This document shows positions 8,309 through 20,413 of a stretch of 25,025 nucleotides of DNA, in pieces (the first letter of the stretch is position 1; each line of letters begins with the position of its first letter). The notes beneath the pieces were generated by a model that made no database searches, was not told the DNA's origin, and was given only the letters and a program-made list of their open reading frames with translations. This DNA comes from Myxococcota bacterium. Its GTDB lineage: Bacteria; Myxococcota; SpSt-1050. The DNA lies in contig JBMFOP010000049.1 of assembly GCA_049969675.1 (NCBI GenBank), positions 1 to 25,025 on the forward strand. The letters run 5' to 3'. The translations under genes were made by a program, and so were the position numbers.

Positions 8309-8866
8309 ATGGTAGAGATTAGATTTCATGGAAGAGGAGGTCAGGGAGCCGTAATAGCATCAAAGATACTTGCTATGGCATTCTTTGCTGAGGGGCATTA
8401 TGTTCAGTCATTCCCTCTTTTCGGAGTGGAGCGAAGAGGTGCACCGGTGGCGGCATTTACAAGAGTTGACACAAAGCCGGTGAGACTGAAGTGCAATATC
8501 TATACCCCGGACTGCATAATCGTTCTGGACCCCACACTTACAAAGACGGTAGATATTGCAGCCGGTCTAAAGGAGAACGGCACAATTCTGATAAACTCGG
8601 ATTCGTCACCAGAGGAGTATAAAGAGAAATATTCAAAATTTAAGATTGCCACCATAGATGCAGATGCTATTGCAAGGGAGTTCAGACTTGGGTCGGCAAC
8701 GAGCCCAATTATCAACACAGTTATTCTTGGAGCCTTTGCCGCTCAGACAAAGCTGGTCAAACTTGAGAGTATTCAGGATGGTATCAGGAAGGAGATACCT
8801 ATTAAGACAGAGGCAAATTGCGAGGCAGCAAAAAAGGCATATCAAAACATAAAAATTCTAAAGTGA
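8309..8866 (+). CDS. porC: pyruvate/2-oxoacid:ferredoxin oxidoreductase gamma subunit
   Basis: EIRFHGRGGQG, FGVERRGAPV.AFTR, NTVILGAF. Confidence 0.95.
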   Translation: MVEIRFHGRGGQGAVIASKILAMAFFAEGHYVQSFPLFGVERRGAPVAAFTRVDTKPVRLKCNIYTPDCIIVLDPTLTKTVDIAAGLKENGTILINSDSSPEEYKEKYSKFKIATIDADAIAREFRLGSATSPIINTVILGAFAAQTKLVKLESIQDGIRKEIPIKTEANCEAAKKAYQNIKILK

Positions 8867-8877
8867 GGAATTGGGAT

Positions 8878-10671
8878 ATGAAGAGAAATATTGAGGATAA
8901 GAAACCGGTCGTAATATCCAGTTATAGAGAGATGCCTCCGATGTCAGTATCTCTCGCCACAATGAGATGGAACCTTACAGGTTCCTGGAGATATCTAAAG
9001 CCATTTTATGTCCAGAAGGTCTCTCCCTGCCATGCCGGATGTCCGGGTGGACAGAATGTAGAGGGGTGGATAAGACTTATGGAGGAAGGACATTATGATG
9101 AGGCAATAAGACTCCTGCGGGAAGAGAATCCCTTTCCTGCAATTACTGGAAGGGTCTGCTTTCATCCCTGTGAGCTGAAATGTTCAAGGGCATATTTTGA
9201 TAAATCAGTCTCTATCAACAATCTGGAGAGATTTCTTGCAGATCATTCAAACCTGGAATATATGATTAAAAAAGATGAGATAGCAGAGTCCACCGGCAAG
9301 AAGGTTGCAATTGTCGGTAGCGGTCCTGCAGGGCTCTCCTGCGCGTATCACCTATTAAGGCTCGGATATGAAGTAGAGATATTTGAGGCAGAAAGAGAGC
9401 CCGGTGGTGTCTTAAGGATCGGTATTCCGGAATATAGACTCCCCAAAGACATCCTTGCAAGAGAGATAAAGATCCTGACCGGCTCCGGAGTGAAGATTCA
9501 TACAGGTAAGAGAGTAGGCAAAGATATAAGTTATGATTCTTTAAAAAATTACTTTGCGGTCTTTGTTGCAACAGGTGTTCATAAGAGTAAGAGCCTTGGA
9601 ATTGCTGGAGAAGATGCGGAAGGGGTTATGAGCGGGTTGTTATATCTTAAGAAGGTAAATCTCAAAGAGAAGGTCACAACCGGTAAGAAAGTTGTTGTAA
9701 TCGGTGGCGGAAATACTGCTATGGATTCGGCAAGGGTAGCAAAGCGAAATGGTGCGGATGTCACTATATTGTACAGAAGGACACGCGCAGAGATGCCTGC
9801 GTGGGAAGAAGAGATTGAAGAGGCATTAACAGAAGGGGTGGATCTTATGGAATTAAGCATCCCGAAGAAGGTTTTAATAAAGGATTCAAGGGTGGCTGGC
9901 ATACTTGTTCAGAAGGCAAGGCTCGGTGAGCCTGATGCCTCCGGGAGGAGGAGGCCCGAACCGATAGAGGGCTCTGAATATGAGATTGAGTGTGATATGA
10001 TTCTCTCTGCCATCGGTGAGGAGATAGATGAGTCTTCTCTCCCTGATATCAGGACATCAAAGGGGAATGTGGTAATCGGGAAGGACCTCTCCACTTCTAT
10101 AAAGAACTACTTTGCTGGGGGAGATATAATAGACCAGCCGCATACAGTAATTGACGCAATCGCAAGCGGAAAGAAGGCGGCGATAGCCATTGACTGTAGA
10201 TTCAGAAAACTTAATTTTGAGGATGTACTAAAGGAGATAGCTATAGGGGAGTGGGGCTCTATCTCTATGCAGATCTATAGAGAGAAGTTTGTATTCAATA
10301 CATATAGCACGCCTTCAGTCAGAGTCTCTACTGAGACCGTTGACCCTAAGAGCATAAATACCGCGTACTTTCAGCCATTTGATAGGTCAACGATGAACAA
10401 GATCCCGCTCTCAGAGAGGAAGGGCGGCTTTGCTGAGGTCAATACTGGACTTACACAACAACAGGCGATGCACGATATCTCTCGCTGTTTCCACTGCGGG
10501 AGATGCACTATGTGCGACAACTGTTACATATTCTGCCCGGATAATGCTATAAGCCACAACAGAAAAGGTTTTGGCTATATCATTGACTACGATTATTGTA
10601 AGGGTTGCGGGATATGTGTGACAGAGTGTCCGAGAAATGCAATGGGTATGGAGAAGGAGAGCAAGATATGA
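8878..10671 (+). CDS. GltD/SudA/NfnB-like FAD/NAD(P) Fe-S oxidoreductase fused within a PorD-type 2[4Fe-4S] delta subunit
   Basis: Likely ATG at 8878 (GAGGA upstream). PorD-like TGSWRYLKP at the N-terminus; PCxxxCP and GRVCFHPCE clusters; GSGPAG and GGGNTAMD dinucleotide motifs; C-terminal CTMCDNCYIFCP and DYDYCKGCGICVTECP. Confidence 0.9.
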   Translation: MKRNIEDKKPVVISSYREMPPMSVSLATMRWNLTGSWRYLKPFYVQKVSPCHAGCPGGQNVEGWIRLMEEGHYDEAIRLLREENPFPAITGRVCFHPCELKCSRAYFDKSVSINNLERFLADHSNLEYMIKKDEIAESTGKKVAIVGSGPAGLSCAYHLLRLGYEVEIFEAEREPGGVLRIGIPEYRLPKDILAREIKILTGSGVKIHTGKRVGKDISYDSLKNYFAVFVATGVHKSKSLGIAGEDAEGVMSGLLYLKKVNLKEKVTTGKKVVVIGGGNTAMDSARVAKRNGADVTILYRRTRAEMPAWEEEIEEALTEGVDLMELSIPKKVLIKDSRVAGILVQKARLGEPDASGRRRPEPIEGSEYEIECDMILSAIGEEIDESSLPDIRTSKGNVVIGKDLSTSIKNYFAGGDIIDQPHTVIDAIASGKKAAIAIDCRFRKLNFEDVLKEIAIGEWGSISMQIYREKFVFNTYSTPSVRVSTETVDPKSINTAYFQPFDRSTMNKIPLSERKGGFAEVNTGLTQQQAMHDISRCFHCGRCTMCDNCYIFCPDNAISHNRKGFGYIIDYDYCKGCGICVTECPRNAMGMEKESKI

Positions 10672-11822
10672 AGAAAGTTCTGATGGGAAATCACGCCGTA
10701 TCTTACGGAGTAATGTTATCAAGGGTAAAGGTAATTGCGGCGTATCCAATAACGCCACAGACACAGATAGTTGAAGAGCTGTCCGAACTCTGTGCGACAA
10801 AGAAGCTGGATGCCACATTTATAAAAGTTGAATCCGAACATTCAGCCCTTGCCTGTATCCTCGGCGCATCCCTTGCAGGGAGCAGGTCATTTACTGCTAC
10901 AAGCTCGCAGGGTCTTGCACTTATGCACGAACTCATTCACTGGGCGGGGCTCGGTAGATATCCCATAGTCCTTGCAAATGTCAACAGGGCGATGGGCCCG
11001 GGGTGGAATATCTGGTCCGACCAGAATGACTCCCTCTCTCAGAGAGATTGTGGATGGATTCAGCTCTACTGTGAGAACAATCAGGAAGTTCTGGACAATG
11101 TCATAATCGGTTACAGGATTTCAGAGAAGGTCCTGCTCCCCGTGATGCTGGTATATGATGCCTTCATACTCTCACATACATATGAAATAGTAGATATCCC
11201 TGAACAGGCACAGGTAGATAAGTTTCTGCCACCATTTAATAACAAATACAAACTTGATATAGAGAACCCTGCAAGCTTTGGGGGACTTACAAGTCCAGAG
11301 CATTATTATGAACTCAGATACAATATGCAGAAGGCTATGGAGGAGGCTGTATCAGTCTATAAAGAGGCACAGAAAGAGTTTAAGGAGATTTTCGGGCGGG
11401 ACTATCCAATGATTGAGGAATATCGCGCGGAGGATGCCCAATATCTATATATTACAAGCGGCTCACTCACATCTACAGCACGTATAGTCGTTGATGAGTT
11501 GAGGGATAGAGGATACAAAGTCGGGCTCTTAAAGATAAAGACCTTCAGACCTATGGATAAGACAGAGCTGATAAGATTACTTAAAGGCAGGGAGAAGGTC
11601 TTTATACTGGATAGAAATATATCGGTTGGTGTAGGTGGCATATTCGCACAGGAGATTAAGGCATATCTTTATGGTCAGAAATTTATGCCAGAGATATACC
11701 CATTTATCATAGGACTTGGTGGCAGAGATATCCCGCCCTCCTCAATTATGGAGGCATTCAACTATGCCGTGGTAGAGAATAAGGAGCCGGATGACATACT
11801 CTACATCGGTCTTAAGAAGTAG
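10668..11822 (+). CDS. porA: pyruvate/2-oxoacid:ferredoxin oxidoreductase alpha subunit
   Basis: ATG 10668 overlaps the upstream TGA (ATGA) with AAGGAG RBS. AAYPITPQT, VESEHSA, TATSSQGL, GLGGRDI. Confidence 0.95.
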   Translation: MKKVLMGNHAVSYGVMLSRVKVIAAYPITPQTQIVEELSELCATKKLDATFIKVESEHSALACILGASLAGSRSFTATSSQGLALMHELIHWAGLGRYPIVLANVNRAMGPGWNIWSDQNDSLSQRDCGWIQLYCENNQEVLDNVIIGYRISEKVLLPVMLVYDAFILSHTYEIVDIPEQAQVDKFLPPFNNKYKLDIENPASFGGLTSPEHYYELRYNMQKAMEEAVSVYKEAQKEFKEIFGRDYPMIEEYRAEDAQYLYITSGSLTSTARIVVDELRDRGYKVGLLKIKTFRPMDKTELIRLLKGREKVFILDRNISVGVGGIFAQEIKAYLYGQKFMPEIYPFIIGLGGRDIPPSSIMEAFNYAVVENKEPDDILYIGLKK

Positions 11823-11926: not shown

Positions 11927-11942
11927 TGGCACAATATTTGCA
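11927..11942 (+). promoter_or_regulatory. sigma-54 (RpoN) -24/-12 promoter of the T3SS-like operon
   Basis: TGGCAC-AATAT-TTGCA matches the TGGCAC-N5-TTGCW consensus, with GG and GC correctly spaced; located just upstream of the AGGAGG RBS and ATG 11971. Confidence 0.85.
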
Positions 11943-11970
11943 ACAAAAGATGAGTGTTGAAGGAGGATAT

Positions 11971-12453
11971 ATGAGTGAAGTAACACCAACAGTTATGTCT
12001 GGAATTGATTCCAGAGAGAGCACCACAAGACAGGTGCCAAAACAGGATTTTTCTAAGGTCCTGAAGGAGAGTCTGGCCACCACGACAAGAGTTATTGTAA
12101 ATGGGGTCGCAGTAATCTCTCCGGAGCTGGATGTCTCAAAGACACTGGTCTCCACAATGAGCAGGTCACTTGCAGAGAAGTCCGCAGAGGTAGAGAATAA
12201 AGAGGCGATTATAAACGAGGGAGGTACTTCAATCAATAATAACTCATCTACATCCATTCCCTCACAGAACTCTTCGGCAAACGACCTCTTAAGTGCCACA
12301 AAGGCCCTTCAGGAGGCAAACTGGCAGTTCTCTCTTGAATATCTGAACTTGCAGGAGAAGGTCTCAAGTGAAAACCGTTACTTCTCAACAGTCTCCAACA
12401 TTATGAGGACGAGACATGACTCTGCAAAGAATGCTATAAACAACCTGAGGTAG
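11971..12453 (+). CDS. T3SS needle/filament (SctF-like) protein with N-terminal extension
   Basis: ATG 11971 preceded by AGGAGGA. C-terminal LQEKVSSENRYFSTVSNIMRTRHDSAKNAINNLR aligns without gaps to the needle C-terminal helix of PrgI as recalled. First gene before the sctI/sctJ-like genes. Confidence 0.6.
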   Translation: MSEVTPTVMSGIDSRESTTRQVPKQDFSKVLKESLATTTRVIVNGVAVISPELDVSKTLVSTMSRSLAEKSAEVENKEAIINEGGTSINNNSSTSIPSQNSSANDLLSATKALQEANWQFSLEYLNLQEKVSSENRYFSTVSNIMRTRHDSAKNAINNLR

Positions 12454-12456
12454 CAT

Positions 12457-12750
12457 ATGTCGGCGATAACTTCAGTAACGATGAGTTCGATTCAATCCGT
12501 ATCGGGGGCACAGACAAAACAGAATATGTTCAGCAATTCATTTAAGGATGCCCTCGCAAATATTGATAAAAATTATAGCAATATTGAACAACAGGTAAAT
12601 ATGGCAGCACGAAATGATAGACTTTCTCCAACACAATTACTGGCGATTCAGTCCGGGGTCTTGAGATCCTCACTTGAACTGGACATTACAAGCAAGGTGA
12701 TAGAAAAGGTCTCAAGCGGCGTCAGACAGACAATGAACAATCAGGTGTGA
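12457..12750 (+). CDS. sctI: T3SS inner rod protein (SctI/YscI/HrpB2-like)
   Basis: 97 aa with SPTQLLAIQ..ELDITSKVIEKVSSGVRQTMNNQ, the typical inner rod C-terminus; directly upstream of sctJ. Confidence 0.75.
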   Translation: MSAITSVTMSSIQSVSGAQTKQNMFSNSFKDALANIDKNYSNIEQQVNMAARNDRLSPTQLLAIQSGVLRSSLELDITSKVIEKVSSGVRQTMNNQV

Positions 12751-12752
12751 TT

Positions 12753-13514
12753 ATGAAAAGAAATATTTTGTTTATTCTTTTATTACTCCTCATAACCTCC
12801 TGCAAGAAAGAGATTCTCCATTCAATCTCAGAAGAACAGGCAAATGACATCATCTCTGTTTTATCGGAGTACGGGATAGATGCAAAGAAGGTCTCTGATG
12901 GGAAGGGAGAAGGCACAACTTTTAATATCGTGGTTGATGAGAATGACTATGGAAGAAGCTGGAGTATATTAAAGGAGAATGGACTTCCTCGTGAGAAGAC
13001 AAAGGGACTTTCAGATGTCTATCAGAGGCAGGGGTTGATCTCCTCCTCAACCGAAGAGAAGGCATTGCTTGTTCAGGCGATCAAGGGTGAGATAGAACGT
13101 ACTCTTGAGACCATTGATAGTGTTATAAGGGCAAGGGTAATAATCTCTGTCCCATTTCCTTCTCAAAACCCCTTTGATGAATCAAAGGACCTTCCAAAGG
13201 CATCGGTCCTGTTAAAGGTTAAGAAAAATTCATATATCAATAAAGAGATGATAAAGGGTATTTTAATTGGTGCAGTTTCATCGCTTGAGAAGGATAATAT
13301 AAATGTGGAGATTGTGGAATCCTATGGGAATAATATCTCTCAATCACCGGCAATGACATACATAGGGCCATTTCTGGTCTTAAAATCCTCCGCGAGAATC
13401 TTCTACACATTTATAATCTCAACACTCTCCATACTGGCAGTTGTAGTTGTGCTGATATTTTTATTCTACTATAGAAAACGGGTTCAGGCTCCGGCAGAGG
13501 TAGAAGAATGTTAG
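12753..13514 (+). CDS. sctJ: T3SS inner-membrane ring lipoprotein SctJ (YscJ/PrgK family)
   Basis: Lipobox LLITSC, SEEQANDIISVL, NGLP, EIERTLETIDSVIRARV, PKASVLL, C-terminal TM helix with RKR stop-transfer. Alternative GTG start at 12747. Confidence 0.92.
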   Translation: MKRNILFILLLLLITSCKKEILHSISEEQANDIISVLSEYGIDAKKVSDGKGEGTTFNIVVDENDYGRSWSILKENGLPREKTKGLSDVYQRQGLISSSTEEKALLVQAIKGEIERTLETIDSVIRARVIISVPFPSQNPFDESKDLPKASVLLKVKKNSYINKEMIKGILIGAVSSLEKDNINVEIVESYGNNISQSPAMTYIGPFLVLKSSARIFYTFIISTLSILAVVVVLIFLFYYRKRVQAPAEVEEC

Positions 13515-13720
13515 TCAATGAAAAAGTTGCAAAGGCGATCAGTCTTATGTATGCTGCTGGCATTTTTAAAGAGAAAAATATTAGATATATTTCCGGGGAT
13601 ATTAAAGAGAAGATTATTATTCTTAAGAGTTCATTTGAAAAGGCTAAGATGATGAAAGAGATAACAGATTCATTCGTGGAGATGTATATATGGAAGGACA
13701 GAAGATTTCTGAGGGATTAA
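13508..13720 (+). CDS. small hypothetical protein at the SctK position
   Basis: 70-aa ORF overlapping the sctJ stop and sctL start; supported by position only. Confidence 0.5.
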   Translation: MLVNEKVAKAISLMYAAGIFKEKNIRYISGDIKEKIIILKSSFEKAKMMKEITDSFVEMYIWKDRRFLRD

Positions 13721-14286
13721 TAAATACAGTATCCGGAATAAGGCGATATGCAAGAACTATGGAATATCTGCCTGAGGATATAAATATACGGATTAGGTCT
13801 ATTGAGGAGCTGTGTAATAGCGTGGAGGGTATCATTGAAGATATGATAAAGAAAAGAGAAGAGGAGCTCAAAAGTGGTTATAGAGATGGTTTTGAGGCGG
13901 GGAAGAGAGAGGCCTTAAATCAATTTCAGTCAGTTATTCTGGAACTCAACAAGAGAGTTCAGCAGATTAAAGAGATGGAGATTGAACAGATAAAGTCCTA
14001 TTTTAAGAAATTTGTATCGGCTCTTGTAAGGATTATTTCACAGGAGGATATCACCTTTTTGCAGAGATATCTTCAGGAACTGATAAGTAGAATAGATGGT
14101 GAGAAAATAAAGTTAATTGTTTCAGGCAGGATATATCCTGATCTGAACAAGGGGATCTTGTTGCCAGATAAGGTGGAGCTGGTATCAGATGAAAATCTGA
14201 GTCCTGAGCAGATATTCTTGGAGCGCGACGGCACACTGGTAGATATTACTCTTGATAGCTTCTTTGAGGAGATAAAAATTGATTGA
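13690..14286 (+). CDS. sctL: T3SS/flagellar ATPase stator (SctL/FliH family)
   Basis: GxxxG repeats (GYRDGFEAG), coiled-coil body, C-terminal LVSDENLSP..GTLVD; between sctJ and the ATPase; GGAG RBS. Confidence 0.75.
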   Translation: MEGQKISEGLINTVSGIRRYARTMEYLPEDINIRIRSIEELCNSVEGIIEDMIKKREEELKSGYRDGFEAGKREALNQFQSVILELNKRVQQIKEMEIEQIKSYFKKFVSALVRIISQEDITFLQRYLQELISRIDGEKIKLIVSGRIYPDLNKGILLPDKVELVSDENLSPEQIFLERDGTLVDITLDSFFEEIKID

Positions 14287-15550
14287 GAATATAGTGGAAC
14301 TTCAAAAGTGTGCTGGAAGAATTTTGAGTATAAAGGGATATACTATCCTCTCTGATGTCCAGAATGTGAGAATTGGAGATATGGTGGAGATACTGCATAA
14401 GGACGGATTGAGAACAGGTGAGGTAATAGGATTTGATGAGAACAAATCTATAATAATGATGCATCAGGAGACAACAGGCATTCAACAGGGGTCAATATTA
14501 AGAGTAAAGAGCAATTCGCAGAAAATATTGGTTGGTGATGGTATTGTGGGAAAGGTGCTGGATGGGACTGGCTCAGTCATAATGGGTGGGAGTTTTTGTG
14601 GAGAGCCGTTTGATATAATGAATCTACCGCCAGAACCATTGAAAAGGAAGAGGGTCGAGAAGATATTTGAGACCGGAATTAAGACGATAGATGGACTCCT
14701 TACTCTTGGGAAGGGACAGAGGGTGGGGCTCTTTGCTGGTTCTGGTGTGGGGAAGAGTACACTTATGGGAAATATTACACGCTTTTCCAGAGCAGATGTA
14801 ATTGTTGTAAATCTTATCGGCGAGCGCGGAAGAGAGGTGAGAGAATTTATTGAGGATGTGCTGGGCGATGAGGGTCTCAAGAGGGCGGTGCTTGTTGTAT
14901 CTACAGGTGACCAGTCTCCACTCCTGAGGGTCAGGTCTGCATATGTTGCGACTGCCATTGCAGAGTATTTTAGAGAGCAGGGAAAGGATGTATTGCTCCT
15001 GATGGATTCTCTCACAAGATTTGCTCGCGCACAGAGAGAGATTGGACTATCAAATGGCGAACTTCCGGTTAGAAATGGCTATCCACCATCTGTATTCCTA
15101 AGACTTGCACAGCTTCTGGAGAGGAGCGGTACATCTGAAAAGGGGAGCATCACGGCAATATATACCGTCCTTGTTCAGGGAGATGATATGCAGGAGATTA
15201 TTGCAGACGAGGTAAGAGGGATTCTGGATGGACATATCGTCCTGAGAAGGGAGATAGCGGCTTCTGGAATATATCCGGCAATTGATGTCTTACACTCAAT
15301 ATCAAGACTTATGAATAATATTGTCTCAAATGAGCAGAGGATTCTGGCACAGAGAGTAAAGGAGTTGATGGCTATTTATGAAAAGAATAAGGAGATAATC
15401 TCTCTTGGGATGTATGTAAAAGGGACAAATAAGAGGCTTGATGAGGCGGTTGACAGGATAGAGAAGATTTATTCATTTTTGAAACAGGGGAGGAATCCGT
15501 CTGGTTTTGAGGAGACACTTAATCAGATGAAGGAGATTGTTTCAGATTGA
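14279..15550 (+). CDS. sctN: type III secretion ATPase (SctN/FliI family)
   Basis: GQRVGLFAGSGVGKS (Walker A), LIGERGREV, LLMDSLTRFARAQREIGL, GYPPS, LDGHIVL, YPAIDVLHSISR. TTG start after GAGGAG. Confidence 0.95.
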   Translation: MIENIVELQKCAGRILSIKGYTILSDVQNVRIGDMVEILHKDGLRTGEVIGFDENKSIIMMHQETTGIQQGSILRVKSNSQKILVGDGIVGKVLDGTGSVIMGGSFCGEPFDIMNLPPEPLKRKRVEKIFETGIKTIDGLLTLGKGQRVGLFAGSGVGKSTLMGNITRFSRADVIVVNLIGERGREVREFIEDVLGDEGLKRAVLVVSTGDQSPLLRVRSAYVATAIAEYFREQGKDVLLLMDSLTRFARAQREIGLSNGELPVRNGYPPSVFLRLAQLLERSGTSEKGSITAIYTVLVQGDDMQEIIADEVRGILDGHIVLRREIAASGIYPAIDVLHSISRLMNNIVSNEQRILAQRVKELMAIYEKNKEIISLGMYVKGTNKRLDEAVDRIEKIYSFLKQGRNPSGFEETLNQMKEIVSD

Positions 15551-15691: not shown

Positions 15692-16069
15692 TTAAAGTTC
15701 TTCAACTTCCCAATTCTCATTTATGTAGACACCAATTATCTCAATTTCAGATAGATATCTTCTGGCGATTTCCATACTCTTTTTGATAAGTTCAATATGT
15801 TTATCCCTGCTCACCGGATTGCCGGCGCAATCGTGATGTCCGACGATAATGAGTCTATTTGAGCCGTGTTTTTCTGTGGAGATTTGAATCTTCTTTAAGG
15901 TGTAGTTGAGAAAATTCTTATCCTCTGTAAGCAGTACAAGGTCTGGACCGGGCTCATTTATCATATCTATAAAGTCTACACCGAATCTCTTCTTTGCCCA
16001 TCTGATTACTGGCTCCTGAGTGCGCCCATCCATACAGTTGATCGCGGTAACAAATTTGCCGTGACTCAT
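15692..16069 (-). CDS. small beta-class-like carbonic anhydrase
   Basis: INCMDGR (CxDxR) and GHHDCAGN (HxxC) zinc ligands; ATGA overlap with the upstream peptidase. Confidence 0.8.
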   Translation of the reverse strand: MSHGKFVTAINCMDGRTQEPVIRWAKKRFGVDFIDMINEPGPDLVLLTEDKNFLNYTLKKIQISTEKHGSNRLIIVGHHDCAGNPVSRDKHIELIKKSMEIARRYLSEIEIIGVYINENWEVEEL

Positions 16070-16557
16070 AACTGGCTCCTTTTTATGATGTTGATTAAGT
16101 CTTTATGTGTAATGTTGAGTCCAAAACGGGAGTTGAAATCTCTGGCTCTGTTTAAGATAAATCTGATAAGAGAGATAATAACTGGATGAAAGTTCGGGGC
16201 AGGAAATTCAAGATCTCCTCTAATTATTTTTTCTACCCTTCCGCCTATCTCCTCCTCCCATACCGGTGCATCGGAGTAATTTAGATTGTCTCCCTGAAAT
16301 ATAAAGAGTCTTCTACCCTTATCTGTCTTATATATTTTAATTATTCTGTGTACAATCATAATGTTCTTTCTGATATACATAGCAATATCACCAACACGAA
16401 GTCTGTTCGGGTTAACCTTCTCTATTATTGCCTCATCTCCGTCAAGGAGCAGGGGGAACATAGAGATACCTTTTACAATAAATCTAAATCTCCCATATTT
16501 TTTTATTGCTTCTCTGATACTCCTGATTGTTGCCCTGTTAATTTTATCAGTTTTCAT
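16066..16557 (-). CDS. S24/S26-family peptidase (Ser-His type, no N-terminal membrane anchor)
   Basis: GISMFPLL..GD, VGDI, IVHR, QGDN..D boxes. Likely start is ATG 16557, overlapping the radical SAM stop, not 16650. Confidence 0.8.
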   Translation of the reverse strand: MKTDKINRATIRSIREAIKKYGRFRFIVKGISMFPLLLDGDEAIIEKVNPNRLRVGDIAMYIRKNIMIVHRIIKIYKTDKGRRLFIFQGDNLNYSDAPVWEEEIGGRVEKIIRGDLEFPAPNFHPVIISLIRFILNRARDFNSRFGLNITHKDLINIIKRSQL

Positions 16558-17596
16558 AGTACATACGTGCGCGCTGACAGGCGAGTTCAGATGGCTTAAA
16601 TATATTGTCTGTGTCTCTGAGATTGAGACCCGGACAGATTGAACAGACACCGAGATATTTGCAGGAAAAACATTGCTTATAGTCAGTGATTCTTAGTGAT
16701 TTTATCCATCTGAGCTTCTCAGAATTTCTCCATATATCTATAAGACTCTCCCTTCTCAGGTCTCCCAGCAGTTCATTCCATTCTACGCAGGGGAAGAGTT
16801 TTCCATCGGGCGCTATATATAGCCCGGTAATTCCGGCATAACAGGTGACGGCATCCTTATTGATTGATGCCTGTCTTTCTGATTCCATCTCGTCTATCTT
16901 GACTTCCTTTATCTTCTCAATCCTGCCTATCTCCTTAAATAATCTCTTTTTCTCTTCAAATGGGATATTTAATTCTCTGACTCCCCCCCTTTTAGACATA
17001 GTTGGGGTAATCACCATATCGTATTGTGCTATAATCTTCCCATTAAACTTTTTAGTCCATTTCAAAATATCTATGTAGTTACTATAATTGCCCCGCATTA
17101 TAGAAGTCTTAATAATGATATTGATATTGTTTCTATACAACAATTCAATTGCGTTCATCGTCTTCTCAAATGAGCCTCTCACCTGAGTTATACTGTCATG
17201 AATAGATGGGTCAAGGGAGTAAAGGGAGACTCCAACATTCAGGACATCATTCTCCCTTAAAATCTCAACCTCTCTCTCTTTTATCAAATACCCTGATGTT
17301 ATTATCTTTATAGAGAATCCAAGCCTCTTTGTAATTCTCAGTATTTTCTCAAAGTCCTTTCTTAGGAAGACCTCTCCACCTGAATATGTAACAAACAGGA
17401 CATTCAGAGTTCTGGCATTGTGTAGAATCCTATCTATCTCATTCAGGCTCAACTCCTGCATTCTTCTATGGTCTATGTAACAGTGAATACATCTTAGCGG
17501 GCATCTATATGTTATATCAAAGTGGAGTGATAGAAGGGTATCTGTCTTCCTCGCCTTCTCCCTCAGATATTCAAAGGCTGATAACTGCCTCTTCAA
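16547..17596 (-). CDS. radical SAM/SPASM domain protein (PqqE-like peptide maturase family)
   Basis: CPLRCIHC (CX3CX2C), SGGE, VSLYS..HD. SPASM domain CYAG..PDGKLFPC..CFSCKYLGVCSICPG..C with 7 Cys. Confidence 0.92.
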   Translation of the reverse strand: MKRQLSAFEYLREKARKTDTLLSLHFDITYRCPLRCIHCYIDHRRMQELSLNEIDRILHNARTLNVLFVTYSGGEVFLRKDFEKILRITKRLGFSIKIITSGYLIKEREVEILRENDVLNVGVSLYSLDPSIHDSITQVRGSFEKTMNAIELLYRNNINIIIKTSIMRGNYSNYIDILKWTKKFNGKIIAQYDMVITPTMSKRGGVRELNIPFEEKKRLFKEIGRIEKIKEVKIDEMESERQASINKDAVTCYAGITGLYIAPDGKLFPCVEWNELLGDLRRESLIDIWRNSEKLRWIKSLRITDYKQCFSCKYLGVCSICPGLNLRDTDNIFKPSELACQRARMYYEN

Positions 17597-18388
17597 TCAG
17601 ATGACCTCCAGAAATTTAGGACTCTTTGTAAAATAGAGTATATTATTTTCTGTTCTGGGCAATATCTTCTGTATAGTTAGCAATAAGTTGTCAAAACTCT
17701 CAAGATCTACAGCGGCGTAGAGGACATTCTCCATCATATGTTTGACTGCATCATTAAATGTGAGCCCCCTCTTAAAATCCCGTCTGGACTGTTTAAGGAA
17801 GTATATCTTCTTAAGCGGCGCTTTTTTGTATCTCCCCTTAATCTTTGTATTTCCCCAGAAAGGCGTGGAGTATGCAAAGACCTTTCTTTGTTCTAAGGTT
17901 ATGTAAGAGATTTCGTCTGAGAGTATCTCAATGGAGCTATATGATTGAGATGCAATCCTCGCCATTGTGCTCTTTCCAGTCCCTGATTTTGCTGGAAAGA
18001 GGTATGCCTCACCATCTTTTATAAATGATGCGGCGTGAATAAATAGCCCATTTGAGAAGGTGGCTTTTAAGGCGTAAATTATTCTCAGGAGGGAAGAGAG
18101 GACATAGGTCCTGCTGTTTATTCTTGCCTTCACAACGCACTTCTTCAGGTCAAAAGTTCCATCAAAGTAATGCCACCTGATTTTATAGAGGTTGTTTGAA
18201 AACCTTATGGCTGGTGCAATCCCATCGTATCTAAAATTATTTAAGTCATCTATCAGATCAGCAAACAAAATTATGTCGGGACTATTCTCGGTTAGAAACC
18301 CACTGAAGACATCTCTAATCTCTTTCTCCCTATCTGTTGGACTAAGGAGTACCTCTGTAGTAAATGGTCCAATTGAAATTCTAAACAT
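17597..18388 (-). CDS. HPr-kinase-related P-loop protein
   Basis: FIHAA..AYLFPAKSGTGKST..LSDE..STPFWG, the HprK-related signature seen in radical SAM peptide-modification cassettes. Confidence 0.8.
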   Translation of the reverse strand: MFRISIGPFTTEVLLSPTDREKEIRDVFSGFLTENSPDIILFADLIDDLNNFRYDGIAPAIRFSNNLYKIRWHYFDGTFDLKKCVVKARINSRTYVLSSLLRIIYALKATFSNGLFIHAASFIKDGEAYLFPAKSGTGKSTMARIASQSYSSIEILSDEISYITLEQRKVFAYSTPFWGNTKIKGRYKKAPLKKIYFLKQSRRDFKRGLTFNDAVKHMMENVLYAAVDLESFDNLLLTIQKILPRTENNILYFTKSPKFLEVI

Positions 18389-19336: not shown

Positions 19337-20413
19337 TTATTTCTTCTTCTCCTTATCTATTCTCTGTTCTGATTTATCCTGTTTTTGCTCTGATGGCTTT
19401 GTGAGTCCATAGGACTCTCTAATCCTGTTCTCTATTTCCAAGAGCATATCCTTATGTTCTTTTAAGAGCAGACGCGCATTATCTCTCCCCTGCCCGAGCC
19501 TTTCGCCTTTATAGGAGTACCAGGTCCCGGTCTTTTCAATAATCCCAAGATTGGCAGCCGTATCCAGAATATCTCCCTCTCTTGACATACCTTCGTTAAA
19601 GAGTATATCAAACTCCACCTCTCTGTGTGGTGGTGCAAGTTTATTCTTGACTACCTTTACCCTTGTGCGCGCACCAACAATATCTTCTCCATTCTTAATT
19701 GAACCCACCTTTCTGATGTCCAGCCTGACGGATGCGTAGAATTTTAATGCCTTTCCACCAGTCGTTGTCTCTGGATTCCCGTACATAACCCCGAGCTGCA
19801 TACGAATCTGGTTGATGAAGACTACAAGTGTATTTGAACGGGATATTGCGGCGGTCAACTTCCTTAGCGCCTGAGACATAAGTCTTGCCTGAAGCCCCAT
19901 ATGGGAGTCCCCCATCTCTCCGTCTATCTCAGCCTTCGGAACCAGTGCTGCGACAGAGTCCACAACAATGAGGTCAACTGCGCCTGAGCGAACGAGTGTC
20001 TCAACGATCTCCAATGCCTCCTCTCCATAGTTAGGCTGTGAGAGGAGAAGGTCATCAATCTTAACCCCTAACTTTGATGCGTATTTCAGGTCAAGGGCAT
20101 GCTCTGCATCTATAAATACAGCTACTCCCTGATTCCTCTGACACTCCGCAATTATATGAAGAGCAAGAGTTGTCTTCCCTGATGACTCCGGTCCGTAGAT
20201 CTCCACTATCCTTCCTCTCGGTAGACCACCGGTTCCAAGTGCGATATCCAGTGATAAAAGACCTGTAGAGATGACGGGAATATTTCTATTGATCTCCTCC
20301 GAATCCTTGAGCCTCATTATTGAGCCTTTGCCAAATTGCTTCTCTATGGTACTGATAGCCAGATCAATTACCTTCTCTCTGTCACTCTTTTTGTTCTTCT
20401 CTTCTGCTGTCAT
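19337..20413 (-). CDS. recA: recombinase RecA
   Basis: [53 protein letters not shown]. Confidence 0.99.

Follow-up and report, generated by a model that had tools for sequence, protein, structure and literature searches.

We analyzed a six-gene type III secretion system (T3SS) operon located in a 25,025-nucleotide stretch (the window; contig JBMFOP010000049.1 of assembly GCA_049969675.1) from a Myxococcota bacterium of the lineage SpSt-1050. Particular attention was given to its first gene, orf1, which is predicted to encode a relative of the needle protein SctF. The six open reading frames (ORFs) occupy positions 11971-15550 of the + strand, each abutting or overlapping the next, and follow a predicted promoter-like -24/-12 site of the sigma-54 type (Table 1). 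This layout agrees with an earlier note made from the letters of this DNA.

Table 1. Predicted features of the operon (positions in the window)
Feature	Position	Strand	Basis
Sigma-54 (-24/-12) promoter-like site	11927..11942	+	sequence; one of five strict sites genome-wide; boxes in relatives
orf1, SctF-related, 160 aa	11971..12453	+	C-terminal register test, hhalign against SctF profiles, PF09392-bearing Atlas neighbours, gene position
SctI inner rod, 97 aa	12457..12750	+	PF17001 1.4e-4, TIGR02497 1.3e-3, profile match 95.8%
SctJ inner-membrane ring lipoprotein, 253 aa	12753..13514	+	PF01514 7e-25, TIGR02544 3e-41
70-aa ORF, SctK/FliG position	13508..13720	+	position alone
SctL stator, 198 aa	13690..14286	+	weak FliH/SctL matches; profile match 92.8%
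SctN export ATPase, 423 aa	14279..15550	+	TIGR01026, P-loop, tree

SctJ has a lipobox with Cys17 and a single C-terminal membrane helix, and TIGR02544 matched it better than the FliF model TIGR00206 (3e-41 vs 2.5e-13). The PF17001 match of SctI was under the cut-off; the profile match was obtained with the family of this second ORF (orf2) against six annotated SctI proteins. SctL was identified by profile comparison, and the gene in its position in a genome of the same order (G016) matches PF02108 at 1.8e-13. SctN exceeds the TIGR01026 cut-off, has an intact P-loop and is the sole ATPase of the FliI/SctN type in the genome. The 70-aa ORF has a 41% identical counterpart in a relative of the same genus and a 73-aa ORF at the equivalent place in G016; library scans gave it no family match, and profile comparison with FliG and with further proteins of the K position was not significant. 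Export-gate proteins, a secretin, SctD, SctQ, SctO and flagellar proteins were missing among the 26 window proteins scanned, as the note had stated. A scan for sigma-70 promoters and terminators stayed at chance level.

The gate is encoded elsewhere in the genome (G000; 188 contigs, 99.9% complete by markers). An operon on contig C69, with its own consensus -24/-12 site, encodes proteins of 139, 94, 282 and 108 aa followed by SctR, SctS, SctT and SctU, while a single copy of sctV stands alone on contig C48. The SctT match was under the cut-off (E 1.5e-4) but in the expected position, SctU carries the NPTH motif, and the gate-gene matches are free of internal stops. The four leading C69 genes occupy the O, P, Q and FliO positions; they had no Pfam match, and the sole profile match, a weak one, was at the FliO position (20.6%). 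In G016, the genes placed as O, Q and FliO match FliJ/YscO-like, FliMN_C and FliO, respectively. The O, P, Q and K components of this genome are thus putative assignments made by position only. In all five genomes of the class sample, orf1, sctR and sctV are on different contigs, and in both G000 and G016 the T3SS pieces are flanked by unrelated genes. With sctR, sctS, sctT, sctU and sctV present elsewhere, the note's idea of a minimal machine that was repurposed and has no export gate is not supported. The genome-wide search found neither a secretin at a T3SS locus nor a full SctD. TIGR02500 matched FHA parts only, with 0/5 class genomes above the cut-off, and the three secretins of the genome lie in type II secretion, type IV pilus-like and Tad contexts. 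The Kil-like Tad set of this 3-Mb, low-GC genome comprises a secretin, an FHA-ATPase and an FHA protein on C1 (C1:105091-110220), CpaB-like, TadB, TadC and FHA genes on C2 (C2:478-6393), and Flp-like pilins (C53:9241-9579 and C121:4977-5171). Another strict sigma-54 site precedes genes for a 322-aa TPR lipoprotein and a tail-anchored 227-aa FHA protein (G000:C17:17638-19334, + strand). This pair and other FHA proteins were rejected as SctD candidates, being without the periplasmic ring part or located within Tad clusters.

The strict -24/-12 consensus occurs at five sites in the 3.05-Mb genome, two of them preceding T3SS operons, and rpoN is encoded. The strict core was not enriched (count of 7 vs 0-7 for wrong-spacing controls), and a looser scan gave 70 genome sites, 24 of them outside long ORFs and upstream of varied kinds of genes. 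Since the motif count hardly exceeds the controls, the promoter call rests on position, on conservation in relatives and on the presence of rpoN. In G000, G006 and G016, all three T3SS pieces are preceded by boxes of the -24/-12 type; in some of these boxes, the -12 or the -24 half is degenerate.

The ATPase tree comprised 34 rows, none of them chlamydial, after removal of the F1 outgroup and 13 redundant rows from a 48-row quick tree. The window ATPase fell within a 12-row Myxococcota T3SS clade (92/98) placed between the 8-row canonical SctN clade (100/98) and the 14-row FliI clade (97/94). A position outside FliI is thus supported by the tree, but the approximately unbiased (AU) test failed to reject grouping with FliI (p 0.078). 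A 12-row tree of SctR+SctU gives the class a branch of its own (98/97) without settling its relation to the short and long types of myxobacterial loci. The predicted placement fits the "Myxo" non-flagellar T3SS described by Abby and Rocha (PMC3459982).

Because the gate lies elsewhere, each piece carries boxes and the ATPase belongs to the Myxococcota T3SS clade outside FliI, the operon is, judging by its genes, one of three separate pieces of a split "Myxo"-type T3SS. The earlier note's suggestions of a split, deep-branching injectisome and of a link to myxobacterial systems hold, and its surprise at the missing gate falls away because such a split locus is of a known kind. It is very improbable that the operon is a flagellar relic or a reduced machine standing alone. 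The gate is indeed missing from the window itself, models for FliI and SctN give the ATPase similar scores, the AU test leaves room for FliI affinity, and a FliO-like gene is present in a flagellum-like arrangement: the three pieces resemble in layout the order flgC-fliE-fliF-fliG-fliH-fliI-fliJ ... fliN-fliO-fliP-fliQ-fliR-flhB-flhA. Set against this are the intact gate genes on C69 and C48, the NPTH motif of SctU, the shortness of SctJ, and the absence of flagellin (PF00669 in 0/1 genome, this one) and of flagellar rod genes (PF00460 in 0/5 class genomes; hook and motor genes were not searched separately). Both the stand-alone machine and the relic were accordingly rejected, the former on the gate genes and the latter on the missing flagellin and rod genes and the ATPase position.

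The product of orf1 consists of a conserved N-terminal helix, a variable low-complexity middle and a highly conserved C-terminal part of 60 aa. Among ten close relatives, the latter is 87-95% identical, compared with 21-41% for the middle and 75-76% for SctN. No Pfam or NCBIfam needle model matched orf1 itself. A relation to needles was indicated by a register test, in which 60 of 133 family tails were compared, gapless and with flush C-termini, with 36 SPI1-type and 13 Desulfovibrio-type needles. The scores at offset 0 were +0.74 and +0.78, respectively, and at most 0.0 at all 16 other offsets. The last 38 residues of orf1 match three SctF families in one gapless register, scoring 0.63 for MxiH, 0.98 for Desulfovibrio SctF and 0.62 for AscF, which is one residue shorter, vs a best value of 0.54 among 2429 unrelated ORF C-termini of the genome. 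Four canonical SctI controls reached no more than 0.24 and six flagellar axial proteins no more than 0.30, and under the SPI1 matrix orf1 (0.92) exceeded true Desulfovibrio needles (0.61). In hhalign comparisons, orf1 matched SPI1 SctF at 53.9%, Desulfovibrio SctF at 45.8% and a merged profile at 75%, all in the register of the gapless test, while two true needle families matched each other at 1.5%; these matches (46-75%) exceed shuffled nulls. The orf1 family matched canonical SctI at 1.6%, against 95.8% for the orf2 family.

Further indications came from other genomes. A PF09392 scan of a 9-Mb genome hit two places only, both orf1 homologues and both under the cut-off, and 11-27% of members of the nearest named Atlas clusters carry PF09392, which we take as a lead only. 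A predicted complex of the G117 TPR protein with the tail of an orf1 homologue scored 0.38 vs 0.02 for the best control, with contact agreement of at least 89% and partner predicted local distance difference test (pLDDT) values of at least 73. This model lends weak support: the mark was reached by 51/78 solved complexes and 2/108 mismatches, and passing scores of 0.60 or less included just 5/78 solved complexes, yet all 4 passing mismatches of 180. An origin of orf1 from FlgB, FlgC, FlgE, FlgF, FlgG or FliE was rejected for want of a match to these proteins of the one flagellar locus compared, and matches to Arg_decarb_HB and GldL were read as coiled-coil noise. We conclude that the C-terminal helix of orf1 is very probably homologous to the SctF needle, so that the note's label "SctF-like" is upheld by the register match, hhalign and gene position. 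That the protein makes a working filament is only somewhat better than an even bet.

Relatives of orf1 were found in 325 of 401 sampled genomes of the phylum, and the family has 1652 representatives at 50% identity. G117, a complete 9-Mb genome, contains two T3SS loci, each headed by one orf1 copy, which appear to correspond to the short and long types of the literature. The homologue directly precedes sctI in the short loci of both G117 and G133, whereas in long-type loci it lies between the gene for a small helical protein and that for a TPR protein, an arrangement also seen with needle genes; SctI immediately follows orf1 in 3 of the 26 best loci, and 28 loci yielded 23 TPR ORFs and, upstream of orf1, 16 ORFs for small helical proteins. 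The order orf1-I-J-K-L parallels Shigella mxiHIJKN and the Pantoea hrpA-B-J-D-E positions, while the order small gene-orf1-TPR parallels Aeromonas ascEFG and the Desulfovibrio needle locus. A FliK/SctP-type ruler is kept in related loci of G117, G001 and G003. SctI was present in 29/30 orf1-positive and 2/20 orf1-negative genomes. The positives were hand-picked across families and the negatives were 20 of 76 that were listed and also negative under a deeper profile; since kin are not independent, this co-occurrence is a description, not a test statistic.

The short loci (L044 in G117; L048/L078 in G133) have no adjacent sctN; the lone FliI/SctN-type ATPase of G133 is encoded at a distance of about 1.7 Mb, and G117, with its two loci, encodes a single SctN. 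In long-type loci, a FliA-like sigma factor gene lies between the orf1-TPR block and sctI (L045:19158-19991, L049:12252-13049). Paralogues of orf1 with long low-complexity N-termini exist. In G000, a paralogue (C1:52267-52809) is the first gene of a three-gene operon on the - strand (C1:50556-52809; 181, 254 and 313 aa; L059/L099) with a -24/-12 box. Its last gene occurs in all five class genomes and the whole operon was seen in four; the products have no strong membrane segments, and the fold prediction of the 313-aa protein had a pLDDT of 48. Our guess is that they are minor, tip, translocator or late-substrate subunits.

The AU result and the components assigned by position weigh against the overall reading of the system, and a number of other observations weigh against orf1 as a needle. 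Not a single family member passed a curated needle cut-off (PF09392 matched 3/142, best 0.0063, and the HrpA model NF053530 6/142), and unrelated coiled-coil families matched more members than the needle models did. Matches by hhalign to AscF alone and to the Pantoea pilin-position protein alone were not significant. The Desulfovibrio profile alone, in the null comparison, gave 11.5% with a score of 19.8 vs a null maximum of 19.2 and was judged to be within the null; the merged profile scored 29.4, and one of 60 heptad shuffles reached 27.2. The SctI of this genome scored 0.65 in the register test and ranked above orf1 under needle hidden Markov models. The AlphaFold monomer of orf1 is a single 59-residue helix instead of the needle hairpin (predicted template modelling score of 0.31), and the loop proline of needles is missing. 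The small upstream family matched neither AscE nor the Desulfovibrio E gene. The TPR family encoded next to orf1 in long-type loci matches the Desulfovibrio G gene at 72%, as any TPR protein could, and this genome yielded neither an E homologue nor a close G homologue. No filament, export or killing has been seen. Searches of the PDB with both orf1 profiles, of Foldseek and with PF17401 were uninformative, and VIA-align returned generic helices (best Z of 6.2) with no needle among the matches listed.

These scans could also be explained if orf1 were a secreted substrate, gatekeeper or translocator-like coiled coil that resembles SctF through convergent helix chemistry. Generic coiled-coil matches dominate the library scans, the paralogues with long low-complexity N-termini fit such proteins, and TPR chaperones bind translocators as well. 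This explanation is improbable, given that orf1 matches three independent needle families flush at the end and in one specific register, outscoring 2429 decoys, that its gene position is needle-like and that it has no membrane segment.

We therefore favor, with a probability of roughly 0.6, a split myxobacterial T3SS with rod, ring, stator and ATPase encoded here and the gate at two other loci, in which orf1 is an exported needle-related subunit that polymerises on the rod into a narrow conduit. Sigma-54 would link the three units, as suggested by known T3SS assembly. By analogy, SctR, SctS, SctT, SctU and SctV, helped by FliO, would form the gate inside the SctJ ring, and export would be energised by SctN, SctL, SctO and SctQ, with SctI going first. 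The orf1 protein would be exported after SctI, its conserved C-terminal helix packing to line the conduit and its variable middle lying outside. Pilins of the Hrp type have their variable part outside and pack by the C-terminal helix. At the weakest step, the filament would span the periplasm and emerge on the cell by way of a pore borrowed from another system, the Tad/Kil secretin of this genome being the most plausible one, and would pass proteins to other cells, either into them or onto their surface; alternatively, it may stop in the periplasm.

A related possibility keeps the split system and true SctF/SctI-superfamily ancestry but has orf1 form no more than a second layer of the rod or a short adapter in the periplasm; export would then end in the periplasm and the system would be functionally needleless. 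We consider this unlikely, though well short of negligible. It would suit the lack of a T3SS-linked secretin and of a full SctD, the needle chaperones not found in this genome, the mere 94 aa of the gene placed by position as P, and the needle-like score of the genome's own SctI; a periplasmic structure is also suggested by Abby and Rocha (PMC3459982). However, long-type loci keep the TPR neighbour and the ruler, orf1 does not match canonical SctI, and its long variable middle suits an exposed surface.

The closest published counterpart is the "Myxo" system, for which short and long loci and the loss of SctF, with no SctF homologue, are described (PMC3459982). The locus shares with the short type the export gate, ATPase, SctJ and SctI, the lack of a secretin and SctD, a FliO-like gene between Q and R, and orf1 directly before sctI, as in G117 and G133. 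It differs in being split into three -24/-12 units, in keeping K-L-N together with F-I-J, while the G117 and G133 short loci are without adjacent sctN, in the separate SctR+SctU branch of its class, and in having the SctF-related gene said to be lost. Since members of an SctF-related family stand first in this locus and in both G117 loci, the published criterion of "no SctF homologue" looks wrong. Papers of 2012, 2023 and 2025 hold that myxobacterial T3SSs lack a needle homologue, and no report of one was found in the literature searched, which excluded supplements and covered Thiery et al. 2022, a work that may bear on novelty, only through citing papers.

The T3SS* of Myxococcus xanthus (mxan_2434-2464; PMC10433427, PMC12075869) shares the ATPase clade of long-type loci, the lack of its own secretin and a Kil-like Tad set, and an orf1 homologue is the first gene of the G117 long locus. 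Judging by gene count, the homologue in M. xanthus may lie upstream of the mxan_2438-2451 deletion. In contrast, the present genome is without SctD, the genes of the E and G positions and the gene for a FliA-like sigma factor that long loci carry. How T3SS* moves lytic proteins without a needle or secretin is a stated open question (PMC10433427), and in the current model Tad pilus tips substitute for the needle (PMC12075869). FliO is already reported in both M. xanthus systems, and the second of them is reported as not involved in killing (PMC12403147). Any use of the present system, whose gene content is of the short type, against other microbes is therefore conjectural. With canonical needles (MxiH, AscF, Desulfovibrio SctF; PF09392) and Hrp pilins, orf1 shares the end-flush C-terminal helix pattern, the gene position and, in long-type loci, the TPR neighbour; it differs in being about twice as long, lacking the loop proline and a predicted hairpin, staying under the family cut-offs and having no dedicated secretin. 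Unlike the canonical injectisome, the system has no SctC at any T3SS locus.

Upstream of the operon, genes at 8309-11822 of the window encode a 2-oxoacid:ferredoxin oxidoreductase gamma subunit, a GltD-like flavoprotein of 617 aa whose C-terminal part is of the 4Fe-4S type, and an alpha subunit; no beta subunit follows alpha in the window, and the T3SS promoter comes next. On the - strand, positions 16066-18388 encode in a row a 263-aa protein of unknown kind, a radical SAM/SPASM protein and an S24/S26-like peptidase, resembling a peptide-modification cluster. The genome has two recA-like genes (window 19337-20413 and G000:C67:7326-8327, the second judged by sequence only). The record L012 (= L014, G006) is titled Bdellovibrio sp., yet G006 was placed in the genus of the window's genome, so the title is probably a mislabel.

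As a split fragment of a known system, the locus by itself is ordinary. The new point is orf1, probably an overlooked needle-related gene across Myxococcota, which would change the view of how predatory myxobacteria deliver proteins. We lean slightly toward the view that the "needleless" myxobacterial T3SSs, the earliest non-flagellar branch, never lost the needle and retain an elongated SctF of divergent sequence, accompanied in long loci by a ruler and by neighbours in chaperone positions, which forms a secretin-independent or secretin-borrowing filament. If true, the step "SctF lost in Myxo systems" would drop from the standard account of injectisome evolution (PMC3459982), these systems would offer a living model of the step from flagellum to injectisome, and the filament would be the conduit so far lacking in the explanation of how T3SS* lyses prey. 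A conserved needle-related gene heading the loci makes the T3SS* transport question directly testable in M. xanthus.

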